A DNA stretch of 32,000 bases. Origin: Candidatus Methanoperedens sp. Lineage in GTDB: Archaea > Halobacteriota > Methanosarcinia > Methanosarcinales > Methanoperedenaceae. The stretch is from assembly GCA_026552975.1 (NCBI GenBank), contig JAPMTR010000074.1, positions 6,313 to 38,312 on the forward strand, in the 5' to 3' direction. The position numbers were made by a program, and so were the translations under genes. Below the pieces are notes generated by a model. The model was not told the origin of the DNA and did no database searches. It was given only the letters and a program-made list of their open reading frames with translations. Positions 1-23,837 of the stretch are shown in pieces (the stretch's first letter is position 1; each line of letters starts with the position of its first letter).

Positions 1-841
1 TTGAGTTTGTTTCAAAAGCAATGGTACTTGGACGCGTCCAGTTTATTGAAACTGCTGTTGCCGTATGGCAGGCTATACAATTATCATTTGTATTATGTTC
101 CATACCATATTTGATGAAAGCTTCATGAATGATATCTGGTGTATTAATGAGATACTCTGAATGGCATTCAGTGCATAATATGGTGGATGAAGCATGGGCT
201 AATAAACCTGGTGTAATCTCATTAGCACCTGCCCCTGTAAGGTCGTCAGAGCCATATGGATTAACATTTATCTTTCTTGTGTCGAGCATTCCAAACCGAG
301 TGAGATTGTCCATATCTAATGGTACTCCATTAATATAAGTTGATATTTTTTTCTCTTTTTCATAATTATATAAAATTCCTGCTTCTCCCGGTGTCATGCT
401 TCCTTTATAAAAACCATTTTGATCACGTAATTCAATCTTATCATTGCCAGCAGCAGCCCATTGGTCTATAGTAATCTCACCAGAAATTGACGTAGGAAAA
501 TTTCCATTCTGGTAGTTCTGTATGGTCGTTGCAAGGACCCTATTCCCGATCATCGATGGACCTGTAATATTCACATAAATTAATCTCTCATAAGCATTGT
601 CACCACTTGCGTACTGAACACCCTTTTGGACACGGTGGCAATCTGAACATGTGAAGTTTTTATGGATGAAACCTGTATGGATCTCCAGCTGGATATCTCC
701 ATGACATTTAATGCATGGAACCTGGGAACCTACCGGATCAACATTATAATAGCTATGTCCGCCGCTAAATATGGACAGGGTATTGGGGATCAACCATATA
801 GAAATCCCACCTAAAGCTATCAATACCCACAAGAGTTTCAT
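1..841 (-). CDS. exported multihaem c-type cytochrome (at least 4 haems), paralogue of 2191..3510; C-terminal end lies beyond the window start
   Basis: Open-ended ORF absent from the supplied track. Own translation from ATG at complement 841-839: MKLLWVLIALGGISIWLIPNTLSIFSGGHSYYNVDPVGSQVPCIKCHGD... Four CxxCH motifs are visible (CIKCH, CSDCH, CTECH, CIACH) and the N-terminus is hydrophobic. It is collinear with the 443-aa ORF (SLFSGQHTFYNIDATGNQVPCAKCHGD; CVACHTHVAVDINF versus CIACHTATAVSINW). The ATG lies 1 nt after the stop of 843..1304. Confidence 0.85.
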   Translation of the reverse strand, partial: MKLLWVLIALGGISIWLIPNTLSIFSGGHSYYNVDPVGSQVPCIKCHGDIQLEIHTGFIHKNFTCSDCHRVQKGVQYASGDNAYERLIYVNITGPSMIGNRVLATTIQNYQNGNFPTSISGEITIDQWAAAGNDKIELRDQNGFYKGSMTPGEAGILYNYEKEKKISTYINGVPLDMDNLTRFGMLDTRKINVNPYGSDDLTGAGANEITPGLLAHASSTILCTECHSEYLINTPDIIHEAFIKYGMEHNTNDNCIACHTATAVSINWTRPSTIAFETNS

Positions 842-842
842 A

Positions 843-1304
843 TCACTCCTCACATTGCCAGCAATGGAAAGCGGTTGTTTTATATTGGATCGCTCCGGTG
901 CCACTGACCAGGCGGATCGTTATGATTAAAATATCGCCAGCTTTCGGTTCGCTCCCTTCCCTGAAAAATAGCTTCAGCGGAAATTCACCTTCTTCATAGC
1001 GGTAAGCAGACGCCCAGTAACTTGCAGGTGGTGCCATAAGAGTGTTAAGGCGAATATTCGCATCAACCTCCGGGAACTTTGGGATCGAATCTGCAGTTTT
1101 ATAGAAGAATGGTATAGCGATTTCTTCGATCGTTACATTGTTCACCATGGGGGTTCCAGTTTCTGATAGATTGGTTGAAACGATCATCATCACAGCGGGT
1201 TTTGCGAGGTCCATTTCAAGCGCATGTTGATATACATAATACCCTGATATTGACACTATTAATAACAGTATTATACCGTATTTTATTGATTTCTTTCTAT
1301 CCAT
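843..1304 (-). CDS. uncharacterised N-terminally membrane-anchored protein with C-terminal HCWQCEE motif
   Basis: 153-aa ORF with a basic N-terminus followed by one hydrophobic helix (KYGIILLLIVSISGYYVY). No family recognised. The last residues are H-C-W-Q-C-E-E (nt 846-866). It sits between two cytochrome genes with gaps of 42 nt and 1 nt. Confidence 0.6.
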   Translation of the reverse strand: MDRKKSIKYGIILLLIVSISGYYVYQHALEMDLAKPAVMMIVSTNLSETGTPMVNNVTIEEIAIPFFYKTADSIPKFPEVDANIRLNTLMAPPASYWASAYRYEEGEFPLKLFFREGSEPKAGDILIITIRLVSGTGAIQYKTTAFHCWQCEE

Positions 1305-1346
1305 TGTTCACTTCCTATCCAAATTTCTTTCTCGTCCCATATTTAT

Positions 1347-1943
1347 TCAGATCACTCCAAATAATGTATCAAATATTTGTTTAAGAAAAGCAAATATTGT
1401 GAATTTTTCAAGATTCCTATTTTTTTCAGGATCATTGGATGAAATAGGAGAATTAGTCATATAAACCTTGCCTTTTGCCCATGAACCATGACATATAGGG
1501 CAATTCTTGCTAATATTTTTGATGTGTATCGTGTGTACCTTGTTACTATGGCATAGTACACATTGAAATCCCTGTTTTTCAATTCCTTCGATCTTTACAA
1601 CAGTAAAATTATCCTGGGTATGACAGGTGGTACAATTTATTGCATTGTGCCCATTGTGAAATATCTGTTTCTCACTTGCATTGATCAGCGTGTTTCCCAT
1701 GTGGCAGGCTTTACAGATCTTTGGGTTATGTTCTTCCTCCAGTTTTGGCACATCTAATTTGTACTTATGGCAACCATTACATTCACTTTGTTGTGATCCA
1801 ACGCCAGCATTGAGAGTTTCACCATGACATCCTACGCAAGGAACAGGAATATGATCCTCTGGAATTTCTGATGCAGTTGCAAGGTCTGGAGTATACAGAA
1901 GAGAAATGAGGACTAAACAAATGACGACAATGTTTTTTTTCAT
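1347..1943 (-). CDS. small hexahaem c-type cytochrome with signal peptide
   Basis: 198 aa with a signal-like N-terminus (MKKNIVVICLVLISLLYTPDLATA). Six CxxCH motifs (CVGCH, CNGCH, CKACH, CTTCH, CVLCH, CPICH) in about 170 mature residues, plus many extra His residues that could serve as distal ligands. Confidence 0.85.
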   Translation of the reverse strand: MKKNIVVICLVLISLLYTPDLATASEIPEDHIPVPCVGCHGETLNAGVGSQQSECNGCHKYKLDVPKLEEEHNPKICKACHMGNTLINASEKQIFHNGHNAINCTTCHTQDNFTVVKIEGIEKQGFQCVLCHSNKVHTIHIKNISKNCPICHGSWAKGKVYMTNSPISSNDPEKNRNLEKFTIFAFLKQIFDTLFGVI

Positions 1944-2145
1944 ATTATTTTTTTAAATACAGGTTTTTACAGTCATTAATGAGAGATCTTTATCGTTGAT
2001 CTTCTCAAGAGCAACAATATTGAACACATTCTTCCTATCATAAATAAAATACGGTACCCAAAGTATATAAAGTTTACACTCAGTGAAAAATTATACAATA
2101 ATTAATAATTACAGTTAATGGTCAGTTAATAATAAAAGACATTAG

Positions 2146-2178
2146 AAAAAAAAGAGAAAAATGGGGATTACCCCATTT
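2146..2178 (-). terminator. stem-loop plus oligo-U tract 3' of the pentahaem cytochrome gene
   Basis: aaatgggg (2159-2166) atta ccccattt (2171-2178) forms a perfect 8-bp stem with a 4-nt loop, 12 nt after the stop at 2191-2193. On the minus-strand transcript it is followed by uuuucucuuuuuuuu (complement of 2146-2160). Confidence 0.6.
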
Positions 2179-2190
2179 CATAGTTCAGAT

Positions 2191-3510
2191 TTATGTTGTT
2201 AAGGCTGTTGTATTGTCGCTTGAGTCTCCATCAAGGCCAATTGTTGTCTTCACAGTTGCACCATTAACGTACATATTTGCGCCTCCCCAGGTATAGCTCT
2301 TGTCACCAGTTGCATAGGTTGCTCCGGATCCATTGCCATATATCGCAACATTGACCTGACCTTCAGCGAGGAAGTTATCTACAGTCCAGCTGCCCGTTGC
2401 TGTGTTTACAGCATCGAATTGAACTTTGTATGCTTTCTGGAAGTTAATATCGACTGCTACGTGTGTATGACATGCTACGCATGCGATATTATTTGAGCCA
2501 TAACCTGTTCCTGGGCCTCTGAGAACGCCATTTGGATCTGCTACGACGAATTCATTGTGTGCTTCAAGTGAGCCTTCTGTAGCGCTACCTGTTGTCAATC
2601 CCAGACCATCAATTGCTTGGAATCCTCCAGCTGCCATGGCACCTACCCATTCGCCTCCGCCATAGTGGCAGTTACCACAGCTACTGGCTAACAAAGACCT
2701 GTGATTATAGGGTTGTGATTGTACAACCTCATATCCTGCAGCTCCCTTCTGCTGCTCTCCTCCATGGCATTCCAGGCATGAGACCAGTGATGCTGCATGA
2801 TATGTCTGACCAGGAGTCATCAAATTAGAACCTGATCCAGGCGCTATTGTATATGCTGTGTTAGAGGTCCATGTAATTCCTGACCATTCTTCAAAGTAGT
2901 TATCTGTCATATTAGTTTTCAGGGTACCATTAGAATTCCTCAAGTTAACGAGGCCCCCTGTATCATAATATTTATATTCTCCAGCAACAGCAGCATTTGA
3001 TAGGCTGCCAGTATATTCACCATCAATCAAGAGTGCTGTATTATTTAACCATTGGGTTAAATTGTCAGCCTTACGGGCTTTCAAGGGGTTAAGAGTGGTA
3101 TCATCCCAGTTATGTACGGTCAAGGTTGTATCATAAGTCAGATACTTCGGGAAGTTTCCGCCTTCAAAGTTTGAAATGCTTGTTAAAAGATATAGTCTAT
3201 AGGATTCATTAGCTACATTTCTATATCTCACGACTGCAAGCGCATCGTCACCGGATGCAAAGCCTGCTTCGGCCCTATGGCAGTATTCGCACTGGAATTT
3301 TGCATGTGGTGCACCTGATCCTGCTGTTGCCATGGATCCGCTTAATTCTGCTTTCACATCACCGTGACATTTTGCGCACGGTACCTGGTTGCCTGTTGCG
3401 TCAATATTGTAGAAAGTGTGCTGGCCTGAGAACAACGACATGGTTGATGGCAGGGCGAACACGCCAATCCCAATAAGGGCAATTATGGCTAAAGTAAATT
3501 TTGTGTTCAT
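2191..3510 (-). CDS. exported pentahaem c-type cytochrome with a large haem-free middle domain
   Basis: The ORF track gives 2191..3522 (443 aa, GTG start). I prefer the ATG at 3510 (MNTKFTLAIIALIG...) because an SD-like GGATGTGA ends 8 nt upstream of it. Hydrophobic N-terminus. Five CxxCH motifs (CAKCH, CEYCH, CLECH, CGNCH, CVACH), with 166 haem-free residues between motifs 2 and 3. Seven N-x-S/T sequons. Confidence 0.85.
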   Translation of the reverse strand: MNTKFTLAIIALIGIGVFALPSTMSLFSGQHTFYNIDATGNQVPCAKCHGDVKAELSGSMATAGSGAPHAKFQCEYCHRAEAGFASGDDALAVVRYRNVANESYRLYLLTSISNFEGGNFPKYLTYDTTLTVHNWDDTTLNPLKARKADNLTQWLNNTALLIDGEYTGSLSNAAVAGEYKYYDTGGLVNLRNSNGTLKTNMTDNYFEEWSGITWTSNTAYTIAPGSGSNLMTPGQTYHAASLVSCLECHGGEQQKGAAGYEVVQSQPYNHRSLLASSCGNCHYGGGEWVGAMAAGGFQAIDGLGLTTGSATEGSLEAHNEFVVADPNGVLRGPGTGYGSNNIACVACHTHVAVDINFQKAYKVQFDAVNTATGSWTVDNFLAEGQVNVAIYGNGSGATYATGDKSYTWGGANMYVNGATVKTTIGLDGDSSDNTTALTT

Positions 3511-3523
3511 ATTTTTATTCACA

Positions 3524-20162: not shown

Positions 20163-21299
20163 TTAAATATGATCCATTACTTTATCGAAAATACTCTTAC
20201 TCTTTGTTTTTTCACCGCTGATCTGTGCAAATTCCCTCAATAACTCTTTTTGCCTATCGGTCATCTTTGTTGGAACAATGACCTTGATCTTTACAAGCTC
20301 ATCTCCTTTTCCTGAATTATAAAGGCTGGGAATTCCTTTTCCTTTAAGCCTGAACACATTTCCGTTCTGCGTTCCCGCAGGTATTTTCATCTCGGCTTTT
20401 CCATCAAGGGTTGGGACAATTATTTCATCCCCCAATGAAGCCTGCGTAAAACTGATAGACGCTTCCATCACAATATCATTATCATTTCGTGTAAAAATAG
20501 TATGTGGTCTCACATTCATTTCCACATAAAGATCGCCGTTGGGTCCGCCTTTCTCTCCGGCTTCACCTTCTCCTGTTACCCTGAGTCGTGAACCTGTATC
20601 AACGCCAGGTGGGATCTTTACTTCTATTTTTCTCCTCCTCTGGACATGACCGGAACCATGACATGTAATACACGGAGAATCGATCACGCTGCCGGCTCCA
20701 TGGCATGTCCCGCAGGTTGAAGAAGTCATAAATCTCCCAAAGGGTGTGTTCTGCGCCCTGTTAACCTGGCCGCTTCCATTACATGTAGAGCATTTTTTTG
20801 GGGAAGTTCCGGGTTTTGCCCCGCTTCCATGGCATGTATCGCAGTTTTCTGTTCTGGGGACTTCCAGCTCCACCGATTTACCAAAGGCTGCATCCTCAAG
20901 ATTAATAGATAATTCATAGAGAATATCAGAACCTCTGCTTGGCCCTCCACGCTGCCCACCACTCCCGAAGATTATATCGAATATTCCACCTCTGCCTCTT
21001 CCCCCCCCTCCAAAACCCTGGAAGAGATCCTCAAAATCAACGCCCCTGAATATATCCTCCTGCGAATACCGCATATCGATGCCGGCATGACCGAACTGGT
21101 CGTATTGCTGGCGCTTTTTCTGGTCTGAAAGGACAGCATATGACTCAGATATTTCCTTGAATTTCTCTTCAGCATCCGGGGATTTGTTCTTATCCGGATG
21201 ATACTGCATTGCTAACTTGCGATATGCTGACTTGATATCATCCGCTGAAGCTTTCTTATCCACCCCCAGTATTTCATAATAGTCTCGTTTAGTAGCCAT
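20163..21299 (-). CDS. dnaJ: chaperone DnaJ (type I Hsp40)
   Basis: 378 aa. J domain ([13 protein letters not shown]), Gly/Phe-rich linker, four CxxCxGxG zinc-finger repeats and a C-terminal substrate-binding domain. Confidence 0.97.
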
Positions 21300-21532
21300 A
21301 ACTTAAAAAACCAATATCTATTTTTTTGTCTAAATAGCCTTTAGTTAAAATATAAGTTATGGTCTTTATGATTTTGGTATTGCTGTAAATTGTGAATTCT
21401 TCTGAATATAATAGCAACCTTTTTATTCTCCAGAATCATCACATCCTTCCCCTGTAGACGGAACAAAAAAAAAACGGGTACAATTCTGTCTTTAAAAAGG
21501 AAATTAAGAATCATGATAATGGAGAAGGAAAA

Positions 21533-22411
21533 ATGACCCTCAAAAATACTAAATCAAATTCTTCACTGTATAGTTCAACGTGTTTAAATTTATTATTGAT
21601 CGTATTAATTTTTTTAATCGTTCCTGCTGGAGCGGTCGATCTTGATGCTCTTAATAATTCGTGCATAAACTGTCACGAAAATGTGACTGTGAAAAAACCG
21701 TCCGAAAATTTCCAGCGATGGTCTGATTCCATACATTCAAGTTATTTTGTTACATGCGATGCCTGCCATGGTGGGAACCCTGATGTAACGACTGAATCAG
21801 AAGCACATTCAACTATGAAGAATGTGACCGACCCCAAAAGCCCTATTTATTTTAAGAATATTCCTGAAACATGCGGGAAATGTCATAGTACAGAATTAGA
21901 TCATTTTAAGAACACTATGCACTTTGAAAGATTAAGAGCAGAAGCAAGCGCCCCGTCCTGTGCCACATGTCATAAACCCCACAGCTTTAAAGTATTAAAG
22001 GCATCTGAACTCTTACCACTGTGCAGCGTATGTCATAATGTAAGAGATATGCCTTCATCTGCAAATGTTCCAAACGATGCGAAAATCGCTCTTGAAATGG
22101 CGGATGAATTACAAAATGAAATAATGGCCCTGAGTAATTCCTTATCTGATGCAAAGGCAAAAGGAATGGATGTCTCTTCAGCTCAGAAGGATCTGGATAA
22201 AGCAACATTTGTTATAAAAGATGTTCCATCCCTCTGGCATAGCTTTAACCTCAAAGCTTTTGATATACAGATCCAGAGCGGGATAGATTCTGCCAGGAAA
22301 GGCCAGAATAAATTAAGCGAAGTTGAGCCAACAGCTCCATCTGTTCCAGGGTTCGGAATCGTCATGGTCCTTGGTTTATTCGCAACATTATATATTATTA
22401 GAAAAATTTGA
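21533..22411 (+). CDS. pentahaem c-type cytochrome with helical stalk and PGF-CTERM archaeosortase sorting signal
   Basis: 292 aa with an N-terminal signal/anchor. Five CxxCH motifs (CINCH, CDACH, CGKCH, CATCH, CSVCH) in the first ~165 aa, followed by about 90 haem-free helical residues. The C-terminus is ...APSVPGFGIVMVLGLFATLYIIRKI (PGF at nt 22346-22354, hydrophobic helix, basic tail). SD-like GGAGAAGG lies upstream. Confidence 0.88.
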   Translation: MTLKNTKSNSSLYSSTCLNLLLIVLIFLIVPAGAVDLDALNNSCINCHENVTVKKPSENFQRWSDSIHSSYFVTCDACHGGNPDVTTESEAHSTMKNVTDPKSPIYFKNIPETCGKCHSTELDHFKNTMHFERLRAEASAPSCATCHKPHSFKVLKASELLPLCSVCHNVRDMPSSANVPNDAKIALEMADELQNEIMALSNSLSDAKAKGMDVSSAQKDLDKATFVIKDVPSLWHSFNLKAFDIQIQSGIDSARKGQNKLSEVEPTAPSVPGFGIVMVLGLFATLYIIRKI

Positions 22412-22422
22412 AGGGATTTATA

Positions 22423-23517
22423 ATGGATAAAATATCATTAATTGACGTTATCAAACATCGGATTTCTAAGTACAAATTGCCAATTATAATAGTGTTTATA
22501 GTGATGCTTTTTACTATAATTATTATTTCCGCAAAAGTACTTGAGATCTCAGAGAATCCAGCATTCTGCGGTAAAAATTGCCATATTATGAGGCCTTATT
22601 ATGATTCATGGAGAAGTTCATCCCATACAGATGTGAGATGTGTAGAATGCCATTATGAACCAGGTGTGTTAGGTCATATAAAAGGTAAGCTCAATGGACT
22701 CATGCAATTCTACAGCTATGAGACTACAGTTGAAGAATACTCTGGAAAGTTATATGCAAAAGTCATGGATAAAAACTGCCTGGTATGCCATGAAACACAC
22801 ATTTTTTCCGTGGATGTTCCATTCACAGGCGTGAACTTTAGCCATAAGAATCATTTGCTAAAACCAAATAGAAATATTACATTAACATGCACAAGCTGCC
22901 ATTCTATGCTGGTTATAGGTATGAAAGAACACCAATCGGTATCTGACCCTTCATGTTCCCAGTGTCATCCGAATATTGTCCAGAATGACGTGGGTCATAT
23001 TGTTGTAACCACTTCAACATGCTTTACCTGCCACTTCAGGGATGTTCCAGTGGATAGTTCAATCTCAGGATGTCCATCATGTCATGGTCCTCCAAGGGAA
23101 ATGCACAGGAATTATACTAACTTCAACCATACAAGCCACCTTGACCGTGGAGCGCATTGCCAGACATGCCATATAAATATTTCAATCGGTGCAAATGATA
23201 TTGTTTCCAAGGATAAATGCAATTCATGCCATTATAATCCGGAAAGAGTAGCAAGATATGATGATTTTGAGTTTGTGCACAAGAACCATGTCACAAACAA
23301 TAAGATAGCATGCTACAACTGTCATTCCGAGGTAATGCATTCACCCGGAATAAAACAAAACCTTTGTGCAGACTGTCATCAGGGTCAGCATCCGAGCGAT
23401 TGGTTGAATACACATAAATCAAAGGTCTTGATAGGACAGGTTTGCAATGATTGTCATCAGCCAAAATTCTGCGCAGACTGTCACGCAACAGGAAAATCCG
23501 TAAAATTGGCCAAATAG
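22423..23517 (+). CDS. N-terminally anchored NapC/NirT-like multihaem cytochrome, 13 haem motifs
   Basis: The track starts at TTG 22408, overlapping the upstream stop. ATG 22423 (MDKISLIDV...) is the alternative start. After one TM helix comes FCGKNCHIMRPYYDSWRSSSHTDVRCVECH, the NapC/NirT N-terminal pattern. There are 12 CxxCH motifs plus one CX3CH (CGKNCH, nt 22567-22584). Confidence 0.85.
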   Translation: MDKISLIDVIKHRISKYKLPIIIVFIVMLFTIIIISAKVLEISENPAFCGKNCHIMRPYYDSWRSSSHTDVRCVECHYEPGVLGHIKGKLNGLMQFYSYETTVEEYSGKLYAKVMDKNCLVCHETHIFSVDVPFTGVNFSHKNHLLKPNRNITLTCTSCHSMLVIGMKEHQSVSDPSCSQCHPNIVQNDVGHIVVTTSTCFTCHFRDVPVDSSISGCPSCHGPPREMHRNYTNFNHTSHLDRGAHCQTCHINISIGANDIVSKDKCNSCHYNPERVARYDDFEFVHKNHVTNNKIACYNCHSEVMHSPGIKQNLCADCHQGQHPSDWLNTHKSKVLIGQVCNDCHQPKFCADCHATGKSVKLAK

Positions 23518-23526
23518 ATTTAAAAC

Positions 23527-23559
23527 TAGTCATCTCAGGAAATATCCTGTTGATGACTA
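23527..23559 (+). terminator. 13-bp interrupted stem-loop 3' of the cytochrome pair
   Basis: tagtcatc (23527-23534) pairs with gatgacta (23552-23559). An inner cagga (23536-23540) pairs with tcctg (23545-23549). One T/T mismatch and a 4-nt loop. It lies 10 nt after the stop and is followed by tattttacttt. Confidence 0.55.
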
Positions 23560-23606
23560 TATTTTACTTTATAAACGTATCAAAAGATAATTAATGGAGA
23601 TAAGAA

Positions 23607-23837
23607 ATGGTAATCGGAGTAACACTCGTAAATGTTGTACCAGGACAGGAAAAAACAGCTTATAATGAGCTGGTTAAAATAAAAGGGATAAAAGATGTAT
23701 ATCATGTGTTCGGAGAGTATGATTTCGTCGTAATTAGCAATGTAGAAGGATTAAGCGCCTTGAATAAACTCGTTGATACAATAAGAGAAAGTGAAAATAT
23801 CACTGCAACACAAACAATAGTAGGCGCTGAACTTTAA
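23607..23837 (+). CDS. stand-alone Lrp/AsnC-type ligand-binding (RAM) domain protein, no HTH
   Basis: 76 aa. VTLVNVVPGQEKTAYNELVKIKGIKDVYHVFGEYDFVVISNVEGLSALNKLVDTIRESENITATQT matches the beta-alpha-beta-beta-alpha-beta RAM domain pattern. GGAG lies 7 nt upstream of the ATG. Confidence 0.75.
   Translation: MVIGVTLVNVVPGQEKTAYNELVKIKGIKDVYHVFGEYDFVVISNVEGLSALNKLVDTIRESENITATQTIVGAEL

Follow-up and report, generated by a model that had tools for sequence, protein, structure and literature searches.

The DNA analysed here (called the window) is a 32-kb stretch of a Candidatus Methanoperedens genome (anaerobic methanotrophic archaea of clade 2d, ANME-2d). At 21533-23517 on the plus strand, two adjacent genes encode c-type cytochromes, a pentahaem protein (gene 1) and a 13-haem protein with an NrfH-like front end (gene 2). 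An earlier note on this DNA had read them as a self-contained conduit from the membrane to the cell surface. Our analysis favours a narrower role: on balance, the pair is probably a membrane-bound module of the menaquinol:cytochrome c oxidoreductase type, in which gene 2 would take electrons from menaquinol and gene 1 would accept them. The features of the locus are the following.

21411-21428, plus strand: element resembling an archaeal transcription factor B recognition element and TATA box (BRE/TATA-like), ATAGCAAC-CTTTTTATT, about 105 nt upstream of gene 1
21457-21490, plus strand: leader element, an inverted repeat GACGGAA / TTCTGTC around the core AAAAACGGGTAC (21470-21481)
21533-22411, plus strand: gene 1, open reading frame of 292 aa for a predicted five-haem secreted c-type cytochrome, stop codon TGA at 22409-22411
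22410-22416, plus strand: Shine-Dalgarno-like GAAGGGA between the genes, 7 nt upstream of ATG 22423, read from the sequence
22423-23517, plus strand: gene 2, open reading frame of 364 aa for a predicted 13-haem membrane-anchored c-type cytochrome
22462-22554, plus strand: N-terminal transmembrane helix of gene 2, residues ~14-44 (Kyte-Doolittle 19-residue window up to 3.06; helix 18-43 in the AlphaFold2 model)
22486-22905, plus strand: NrfH-like tetrahaem module of gene 2, residues 22-161, with CGKNCHIM, Met56, Lys89 and Gln95 (TIGR03153, phmmer, profile and Foldseek)
22906-23514, plus strand: nine-haem extension of gene 2, residues 162-364, of cytochrome c3/c7/Hmc type (Pfam and profile)
23527-23559, plus strand: terminator-like hairpin of 8+5 = 13 bp followed by a T-rich tract (RNA folding)

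Two candidate starts of gene 2, TTG 22408 and ATG 22423, were found by inspection of the sequence. The N-terminus of all 36 full-length archaeal gene 2 homologues (M[DE]K/N...) corresponds to the ATG, and the GAAGGGA lies upstream of it; gene 2 therefore starts at ATG 22423, and the two genes are separated by 11 nt. The TTG start, which would give a 4-nt overlap, was ruled out by the N-termini of the homologues. The earlier note had the genes abut or overlap: they abut, and the overlap is discarded. Its coordinates for the stop codon, the two candidate starts, the 233-nt upstream gap and the 13-bp hairpin were all correct. The position of the GAAGGGA is consistent with co-transcription of the pair and with translation of gene 2 from ATG 22423.

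Both genes are real and constrained. In composition-preserving shuffles the mean number of haem motifs was 0.01 for gene 1 and 0.15 for gene 2 (maxima 2 and 3), so the density of motifs is not due to chance. The ratio of nonsynonymous to synonymous substitution rates (dN/dS), calculated against three orthologous loci, was 0.15-0.17 for gene 1 and 0.06-0.09 for gene 2, which indicates purifying selection on both.

The NrfH-like module and the haem chain of gene 2

Gene 2 carries 12 CxxCH motifs and one CxxxCH motif (CGKNCH), that is 13 motifs in about 321 extracytoplasmic residues, or about one per 25 aa. The earlier count of five plus 13 motifs and the density given for gene 2 were thus accurate, one of the 13 being of the CX3CH form. 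None of the 13 motifs varies among the 36 archaeal homologues; in 23 bacterial relatives, 12 of the 13 align and are likewise invariant. Twelve histidines outside the motifs are also invariant in the archaeal set; this number matches a predicted set of 12 bis-His haems plus one haem 1 of the NrfH type. Hydropathy analysis gave a single hydrophobic segment (residues 14-44), with the haem domain outside.

Residues 22-161 of gene 2 matched the NCBIfam model TIGR03153 (cytochr_NrfH) with an E value of 5.9e-18 over model positions 4-134 of 138, and a profile built from 59 members of the family matched Desulfovibrio vulgaris NrfH (2j7a_C) at E 9.6e-14. When the AlphaFold2 model of gene 2 was compared with the PDB by Foldseek, NrfH (2j7a/2vr0) was the sole significant match, with probability 1.0, a template modelling score (target) of 0.57-0.60 and a root-mean-square deviation of 3.1 Å over 113-116 columns. 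The earlier assignment of gene 2 to the NrfH/NapC/NirT type is borne out by these three comparisons (rounded, 6e-18 for TIGR03153, 1e-13 for the profile to 2j7a, and the sole Foldseek match in the PDB), but the NrfH-like part had been described as a haem pair and the module covers four haems.

In NrfH, roles have been assigned to Met49, the ligand of haem 1, to Lys82, a residue of the quinol site, and to Asp89, on the distal side of haem 1 (PMC4683180; bioRxiv 10.1101/2025.04.14.648717). Lys91 is the counterpart of Lys82 in CymA. In the phmmer alignment with 2j7a_C, Met56 of gene 2 aligned with Met49 and was invariant in 59/59 sequences; Lys89 aligned with Lys82 and was kept in 58 of the 59 (36/36 archaeal and 22/23 bacterial). 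The haem 1 motif itself (22567-22584, residues 49-54) is CGKNCH in every archaeal member of the 13-haem and 7-haem families, reading on as CGKNCHIM in all 36 archaeal gene 2 homologues, and the bacterial relatives have at haem 1 a standard CxxCH followed by x-Met. The alignment points to a lineage-specific insertion of one residue at the predicted catalytic haem site.

The remainder of the protein resembles known multihaem chains. Pfam matches were obtained with Cytochrom_c3_2 (6e-14), Cytochrome_C7 (1e-12) and Cytochrom_CIII (2e-10), and profile matches with 6i5b_A, with Hmc (1h29, 1gws) and, weakly, with ActA, the pentahaem subunit of alternative complex III (ACIII; 6lod, 8k9e, 6f0k). In one source, the Methanoperedens nitroreducens orthologue of gene 2 (P0027; 6001-7089 of locus L001) is named 'DnaJ-class molecular chaperone with C-terminal Zn finger domain', an evident misannotation caused by its many Cys motifs.

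Gene 1, the pentahaem partner

The gene 1 product has a signal or transmembrane segment at residues 10-41 and five CxxCH motifs at residues 44-168. Five further histidines (H68, H92, H130, H150 and H236) are invariant across 56 sequences, and the protein contains no CxxCK. These two features indicate that gene 1 would be an all-bis-His electron carrier and not a catalytic haem protein of the NrfA type. His236 is contributed by a helical domain (residues 181-262) that AlphaFold2 modelled with a predicted local distance difference test score (pLDDT) of about 90 or above.

The C-terminus of gene 1 (residues 268-292) consists, by hydropathy and alignment, of PGFG, a hydrophobic helix and an RKI tail. 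This tail, PGFGIVMVLGLFATLYIIRKI, is tripartite and resembles an archaeosortase sorting signal. It scored below the cut-offs of TIGR04126 (PGF-CTERM, 14.3 versus 24.5 bits) and of Heimdall-CTERM (19 versus 24), and most gene 1 orthologues have PGIG in place of PGF. A lipid link is thus possible, but a retained transmembrane helix is equally possible, and the description of gene 1 as lipid-anchored in the earlier note is unproven, given the PGF-CTERM score.

Most gene 1 orthologues are 324 aa long and carry an insert of about 32 aa with a CX3CH motif (CSLECH), and therefore should bind six haems. The window gene 1 and its closest relatives have no such insert (after residue ~48, region 21677-21680) and have five haems; on comparison of the orthologues, the insert has been lost in their clade. 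The core of gene 1, made of the haem and helical domains with a conserved W-H motif, belongs to a large and apparently unnamed family of periplasmic pentahaem proteins of about 250 aa, for which a profile search returned 625 cluster representatives at E <= 1e-10, mostly bacterial. Among these relatives (P0258-P0389), one came from Bipolaricaulia and some had CGP-type or plain C-terminal anchors.

Signals upstream and downstream of the pair

A region of about 100 nt upstream of gene 1 was conserved in all 21 loci aligned, independently of the upstream gene, which was nrfD, dnaJ or another gene; this conservation indicates that the pair forms its own transcription unit. In the window, gene 1 is separated by a 233-nt gap from a divergent dnaJ (20163-21299, minus strand). 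The BRE/TATA-like element (consensus AT.G.AA..T.TTTATT) was present in 21/21 aligned orthologous loci and, from its likeness to the archaeal TATA/BRE consensus, is the predicted promoter. The conserved region (21411-21490) also includes a TCATCA box and the leader element, the core of which, AAAAACGGGTAC, is invariant or nearly so in 18 loci and occurs once in the window.

The five core pairs of the leader inverted repeat were each paired in 16-18 of 18 sequences, but their covariation was not significant. The proposed 7-bp stem was 82% paired, yet its covariation was no higher than in shuffles; RNAalifold did not recover this stem and returned only a weak alternative one, and an Rfam scan of 21250-23700 gave no match. 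The repeat may act as a hairpin in the RNA or as an operator in the DNA. The hairpin downstream of gene 2 (23527-23559) folded with a free energy of -17.4 kcal/mol (z = -4.55), and none of 200 shuffles folded as well.

Conservation of the pair and its relation to NrfD

With one genome per species, the conservation scan yielded 50 archaeal loci with a full-length gene of the gene 2 type. In 42 of these a gene 1 orthologue lay 11-19 nt upstream of gene 2, so that the expected co-conservation of the pair across archaea was confirmed, and the flanking genes varied among loci. The eight loci without a partner were those of a clade of 13-haem paralogues (L043-46, L048; 64-67% identity), two with divergent copies (L004, L061; 55-56% identity), and L034, in which gene 1 was absent between nrfD and gene 2. 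The 13-haem paralogues were sometimes found near giant cytochromes with 12 and 16 haems. A short 7-haem paralogue (~217-258 aa; L053-L060) lay directly downstream of large secreted multihaem cytochromes with 4-13 haems. The earlier note had named consistent linkage of gene 2 homologues to a terminal reductase as an argument against its reading, and no such linkage was seen: no nitrite, nitrate or other terminal reductase adjoined them in the window, in the 50 archaeal loci or in three bacterial loci, and the same was true for the 13-haem paralogue clade and the 7-haem paralogues.

The three bacterial relatives of gene 2 have 14-18 CxxCH motifs each and directly follow another multihaem cytochrome gene. 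Two of them lie in operons (L067, 2422-6863; L068, 2120-6830) of the order Rieske protein, cytochrome b, 9-haem cytochrome with a C-terminal transmembrane anchor, and NrfH-like long cytochrome with 18 haem motifs; L067 has in addition repeated modules of b-type cytochrome and multihaem genes. A blastp comparison detected no homology of gene 1 to the cytochromes encoded ahead of the gene 2-like genes in bacteria; these cytochromes have a plain C-terminal transmembrane helix and share with gene 1 the architecture alone. The order of a C-terminally anchored cytochrome followed by an N-terminally anchored NrfH-like cytochrome recurs across domains.

In Methanoperedens, the pair is frequently found beside an nrfD gene. 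Adjacency was counted in the 32 pairs for which at least 4.5 kb of upstream sequence was available: 24 pairs lay 1.1-1.5 kb downstream of nrfD, and eight, as well as the pair of the window, had no NrfD set upstream. The set comprises four genes, for a gene 1 paralogue (38% identical to gene 1, with five CxxCH and one CX3CH, hence six haems), an N-terminally anchored 3-haem cytochrome of 149 aa, a 4Fe-4S protein and NrfD. When the NrfD, FeS and 3-haem proteins of M. nitroreducens were used as tblastn queries, nothing was found in the 32-kb window. In the metagenome-assembled genome (MAG) JBAQMZ01, contig 32 carries the pair (L014) and contig 13 the four-gene NrfD set (L071); the L071 set was followed by unrelated genes, and two further NrfD sets likewise had no pair downstream. 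The pair is thus predicted to be a transcription unit of its own, often but not always beside an NrfCD unit, and its isolation, which the earlier note had stressed, is a local feature only: three quarters of the informative pairs directly follow the 6-haem/3-haem/4Fe-4S/NrfD cluster, and JBAQMZ01 keeps that cluster on another contig. In three Methanoperedens genomes, two genes of the tatA/B/E family lay about 1.5 kb upstream of the NrfD/4Fe-4S cluster (L070, L071 and L072; ~530-1250), which fits export of the FeS subunit by the twin-arginine translocation (Tat) system.

The pair in published data

Five menaquinone:cytochrome c oxidoreductase clusters have been defined in Methanoperedenaceae (Leu et al., 2020, mBio; PMC7327174). 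Group 1 in Data Set S1 of that work comprises NrfD, a 4Fe-4S protein, a 3-heme and a 6-heme cytochrome, a '13 heme c-type cytochrome' and a second '6 heme c-type cytochrome', and M.Nitro_00595/00594 are its 13-/6-heme pair. Gene 2 and gene 1 share 71% and 52% identity with their M. nitroreducens counterparts, which are arranged in the same order and at the same spacing, and by this comparison are taken as orthologues of the Group 1 '13 heme' and '6 heme' cytochromes. [quoted passage not shown] In the same table, the gene numbers of the pairs of Mn-1 and Mn-2 are far from those of nrfD, and for CMD-2 the pair is listed without any entry for NrfD or FeS, although this MAG may be incomplete.

Expression data are available for M. 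nitroreducens (Zhang et al., 2023; PMC10542353), in which Methanoperedens_02260 (12 CXXCH) and Methanoperedens_02261 (5 CXXCH, signal peptide) were placed in Group 1. With iron, electrode and nitrate as acceptors, 02260 reached 1687, 100 and 362 transcripts per million (TPM), and 02261 reached 2063, 174 and 502 TPM. The orthologues of the pair are thus expressed and respond to the electron acceptor, so that lack of expression, which the earlier note had named as a refutation, does not apply. The four Group 1 cytochromes were most highly expressed on soluble Fe(III) (PMC10542353). Dozens of further extracellular and S-layer cytochromes, with far higher expression, are encoded in Methanoperedens genomes, among them an OmcZ-like cytochrome at 21259 TPM versus ~1700-2000 for the pair (PMC10542353).

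Proposed electron route and alternatives

In the route that we favour, gene 2 would be held by its single N-terminal helix, with its four NrfH/NapC/NirT-type haems lying at the surface of the membrane. Haem 1, which has the CX3CH-x-Met form and is accompanied by the conserved Lys, would most likely accept electrons from menaquinol at the outer face of the membrane, and the electrons would then pass along nine further bis-His haems of gene 2. Gene 1, which a lipid or its C-terminal helix would tether on the outer side of the membrane, would be the immediate acceptor and would hand electrons to other extracellular cytochromes. The pair would thus be one entry point into extracellular electron transfer and not a complete path to the cell surface; in the window it is unlinked from the NrfD/4Fe-4S half of the Group 1 cluster. 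More tentatively, the pair, and not NrfD, may be the conserved autonomous menaquinol-oxidising core of Group 1. It would then be an archaeal analogue of CymA/ImcH in which an NrfH-type haem 1 of the CX3CH-x-Met form is fused to a nine-haem wire and which has a dedicated membrane-tethered partner and its own promoter and leader.

Several observations weigh against this reading. The TIGR03153 score of gene 2 was 65.3 bits, below the curated cut-off of 134.2, and PF03264 (Pfam) was not reported for gene 2 of the window, though it is precomputed for many orthologues. The AlphaFold2 model of gene 2 was of moderate confidence only (pLDDT 71, predicted template modelling score 0.60), and the haem domain of gene 1 was poorly modelled (pLDDT <50). 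The motif of haem 1 in the archaeal proteins is CX3CH and not CxxCH, and at the position of NrfH Asp89 gene 2 has Gln95, as Gln is found in 35 of the 36 archaeal sequences. Menaquinol oxidation by gene 2 is proposed from homology only. Finally, the pair directly follows the NrfD/4Fe-4S cluster in 75% of the informative genomes, and all four cluster cytochromes share the peak on iron (Zhang et al., 2023; PMC10542353); because of this adjacency and this joint peak, gene 2 could belong to an NrfCD complex, in the manner of CbcS in Geobacter Cbc4, and not be an autonomous quinol oxidase.

According to this first alternative, NrfD would oxidise menaquinol and pass electrons through the FeS protein to gene 2, the cytochrome exit subunit of the NrfD/4Fe-4S complex, comparable to CbcS in Cbc4 (CbcSTU) or to ActA in ACIII, and from there to gene 1; in the genome of the window, nrfD would be encoded elsewhere. 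The position of nrfD 1.1-1.5 kb upstream in 24/32 pairs and the joint iron peak argue for it, as do the treatment of the six genes as one Group 1 cluster by Leu et al. (2020; PMC7327174), the presence of the NrfD cluster in JBAQMZ01, where the pair is unlinked, and the weak ACIII ActA matches in the C-terminal part of gene 2. There is also a precedent in Geobacter Cbc4, which joins a NapC/NirT-family cytochrome, a 4x[4Fe-4S] protein and an integral membrane subunit. Nevertheless, the promoter region of the pair is conserved even with nrfD upstream, the pair moves independently, and the NrfD cluster already has a 3-haem cytochrome with an N-terminal anchor as well as a paralogue of gene 1. Moreover, gene 2 keeps the NrfH Met and Lys, whereas CbcS has been reported with four bis-His haems (bioRxiv 10.1101/2025.04.14.648717); the CMD-2 pair has no NrfD or FeS entry in the Leu table, though the MAG may be incomplete; and the 13-haem paralogue clade and the 7-haem paralogues are found without NrfD. 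We regard this alternative, the main rival, as less likely than the favoured route.

It is improbable that the pair alone makes up a complete conduit from the membrane to the surface, in which 18 haems would span the pseudoperiplasm and the S-layer and reduce extracellular acceptors directly. The 18 haems are indeed distributed over two membrane-tethered proteins, no NrfD homologue accompanies the pair anywhere in the 32-kb window, and expression in M. nitroreducens peaks on soluble Fe(III). However, hydropathy places the tethers of both proteins in the cytoplasmic membrane, Pfam and NCBIfam scans showed no S-layer domain or other feature of surface exposure, and other extracellular cytochromes are expressed at far higher levels (21259 TPM for the OmcZ-like protein).

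It is very improbable that the pair is a conventional respiratory reductase of the NrfHA kind, in which gene 1 would be the pentahaem subunit that reduces nitrite or some other soluble acceptor: the five haems of gene 1, its weak matches to cytochrome c552/NrfA (PF02335 at 4e-5, below the cut-off; PDB E 0.04-0.1), the automatic name 'formate-dependent nitrite reductase c552 subunit' on some orthologues and the NrfH-likeness of gene 2 speak for it, but gene 1 has no CxxCK and has five invariant extra His as a sixth ligand for all five haems, it is 292 aa long versus ~450-500 aa for NrfA with a c552 match that spans only ~70 residues, the expression data show no nitrate-specific induction and are highest on iron, and Methanoperedens has a separate canonical NrfAH, the only one described there and distinct from the pair (Arshad et al., 2015; PMC4683180).

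We return to the reading of the pair as a menaquinol-oxidising module, and to what it adds. In the papers searched, no description of the 13-haem protein as a homologue of NrfH/NapC/NirT was found, and quinol oxidation is attributed there to NrfD. Chadwick et al. (2022; PMC9012536) considered that small anchored cytochromes of ANME archaea might act like CymA, but that homology to a characterised quinol oxidase is needed to implicate them; the 13-haem protein has such homology, in its NrfH fold and its conserved Met and Lys. What is new here is the explicit homology to NrfH, the separability of the pair from NrfCD and the conserved upstream control region. The general picture is unchanged, since both the place of the pair in a menaquinol:cytochrome c oxidoreductase cluster and its expression had been reported before. 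The interpretation in the earlier note is partly supported: it is partly correct as to the kind of system and goes too far in scope and in novelty, the pair being, from its sequence, a further orthologue of catalogued Methanoperedens cytochromes. The pair is a small two-gene target for heterologous expression and for quinol-oxidation assays on the route from the quinone pool to extracellular acceptors in anaerobic methane-oxidising archaea.

Comparison with known systems

The pair shares with the Group 1 cluster a proposed role in transferring electrons from menaquinol to extracellular cytochromes (PMC7327174; PMC10542353). It differs in that, in the window and in about one quarter of the genomes, it is found apart from the NrfD/4Fe-4S/3-haem/6-haem genes, and in that gene 1 of the window has five haems versus six.

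D. vulgaris NrfH (PDB 2J7A/2VR0), a tetrahaem menaquinol dehydrogenase of the NapC/NirT family, has like gene 2 one N-terminal transmembrane helix, a four-haem module, a haem 1 motif followed by x-Met, and an equivalent of Lys82. Unlike NrfH, which has four haems, gene 2 has 13, its first motif is CX3CH, Gln replaces Asp89, and it has no NrfA partner.

CymA of Shewanella and ImcH of Geobacter resemble gene 2 in function, as single-helix multihaem cytochromes that link the menaquinol pool to periplasmic or extracellular cytochromes; this likeness is drawn from their published description. In ImcH the NapC/NirT-like region is extended to seven haems. The pair differs from both in haem number and in its dedicated, apparently co-transcribed membrane-tethered partner.

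Geobacter Cbc4 is composed of CbcS (NapC/NirT-type tetrahaem), CbcT (4x[4Fe-4S]) and CbcU (membrane subunit), and in most Methanoperedens an NrfH-like cytochrome, a 4Fe-4S protein and an NrfD-family protein are similarly encoded together. In contrast to Cbc4, gene 2 has retained at haem 1 the Met of the NrfH type, the window has no FeS and NrfD genes, and the NrfD cluster has an anchored cytochrome of its own.

In the archaeon Geoglobus ahangari, GAH_01256 is a putative decahaem quinol dehydrogenase of the NapC/NirT family, proposed as the start of extracellular Fe(III) reduction (reviewed in PMC8280799). By its description it is, like gene 2, an archaeal extended multihaem cytochrome of the NapC/NirT type; it differs in haem count and lineage, and the parts of that review that bear on it describe no paired partner (PMC8280799).

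Origin and other features of the window

The gene 1 product is 100% identical to OIN87_07300 of a Candidatus Methanoperedens sp. MAG, and the close homologues of both proteins are essentially all from Methanoperedens or Methanoperedenaceae. The GC content of the window (39.8%) equals that of chromosomal Methanoperedens loci, and the dnaJ-side flank is syntenic with two further Methanoperedens MAGs (L006, L010); these two observations indicate chromosomal DNA, and a Borg or other extrachromosomal origin was ruled out on the same grounds. The neighbouring genes are housekeeping genes, for DnaJ, an AsnC-ligand-domain protein, topoisomerase VI B and a helicase.

A separate cytochrome locus lies at the start of the window.

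1-3522, minus strand: genes for a 198-aa 6-haem cytochrome (1347-1943), a 443-aa 5-haem cytochrome (2191-3522) and a 153-aa haem-free membrane protein (843-1304), with a further paralogous multihaem gene off the window start

The earlier note had suggested that this locus and the pair could form one complete electron path. No evidence for such a link was found: the locus lies 18 kb from the pair on the other strand, and unrelated genes separate the two.

Just past the terminator, 23607-23837 encodes a 76-aa protein that corresponds to an Lrp/AsnC ligand-binding domain alone, without a DNA-binding domain. In the nearest related loci no synteny with the window extends beyond 23559; in M. nitroreducens the gene downstream of the pair is instead one for a methyltransferase.

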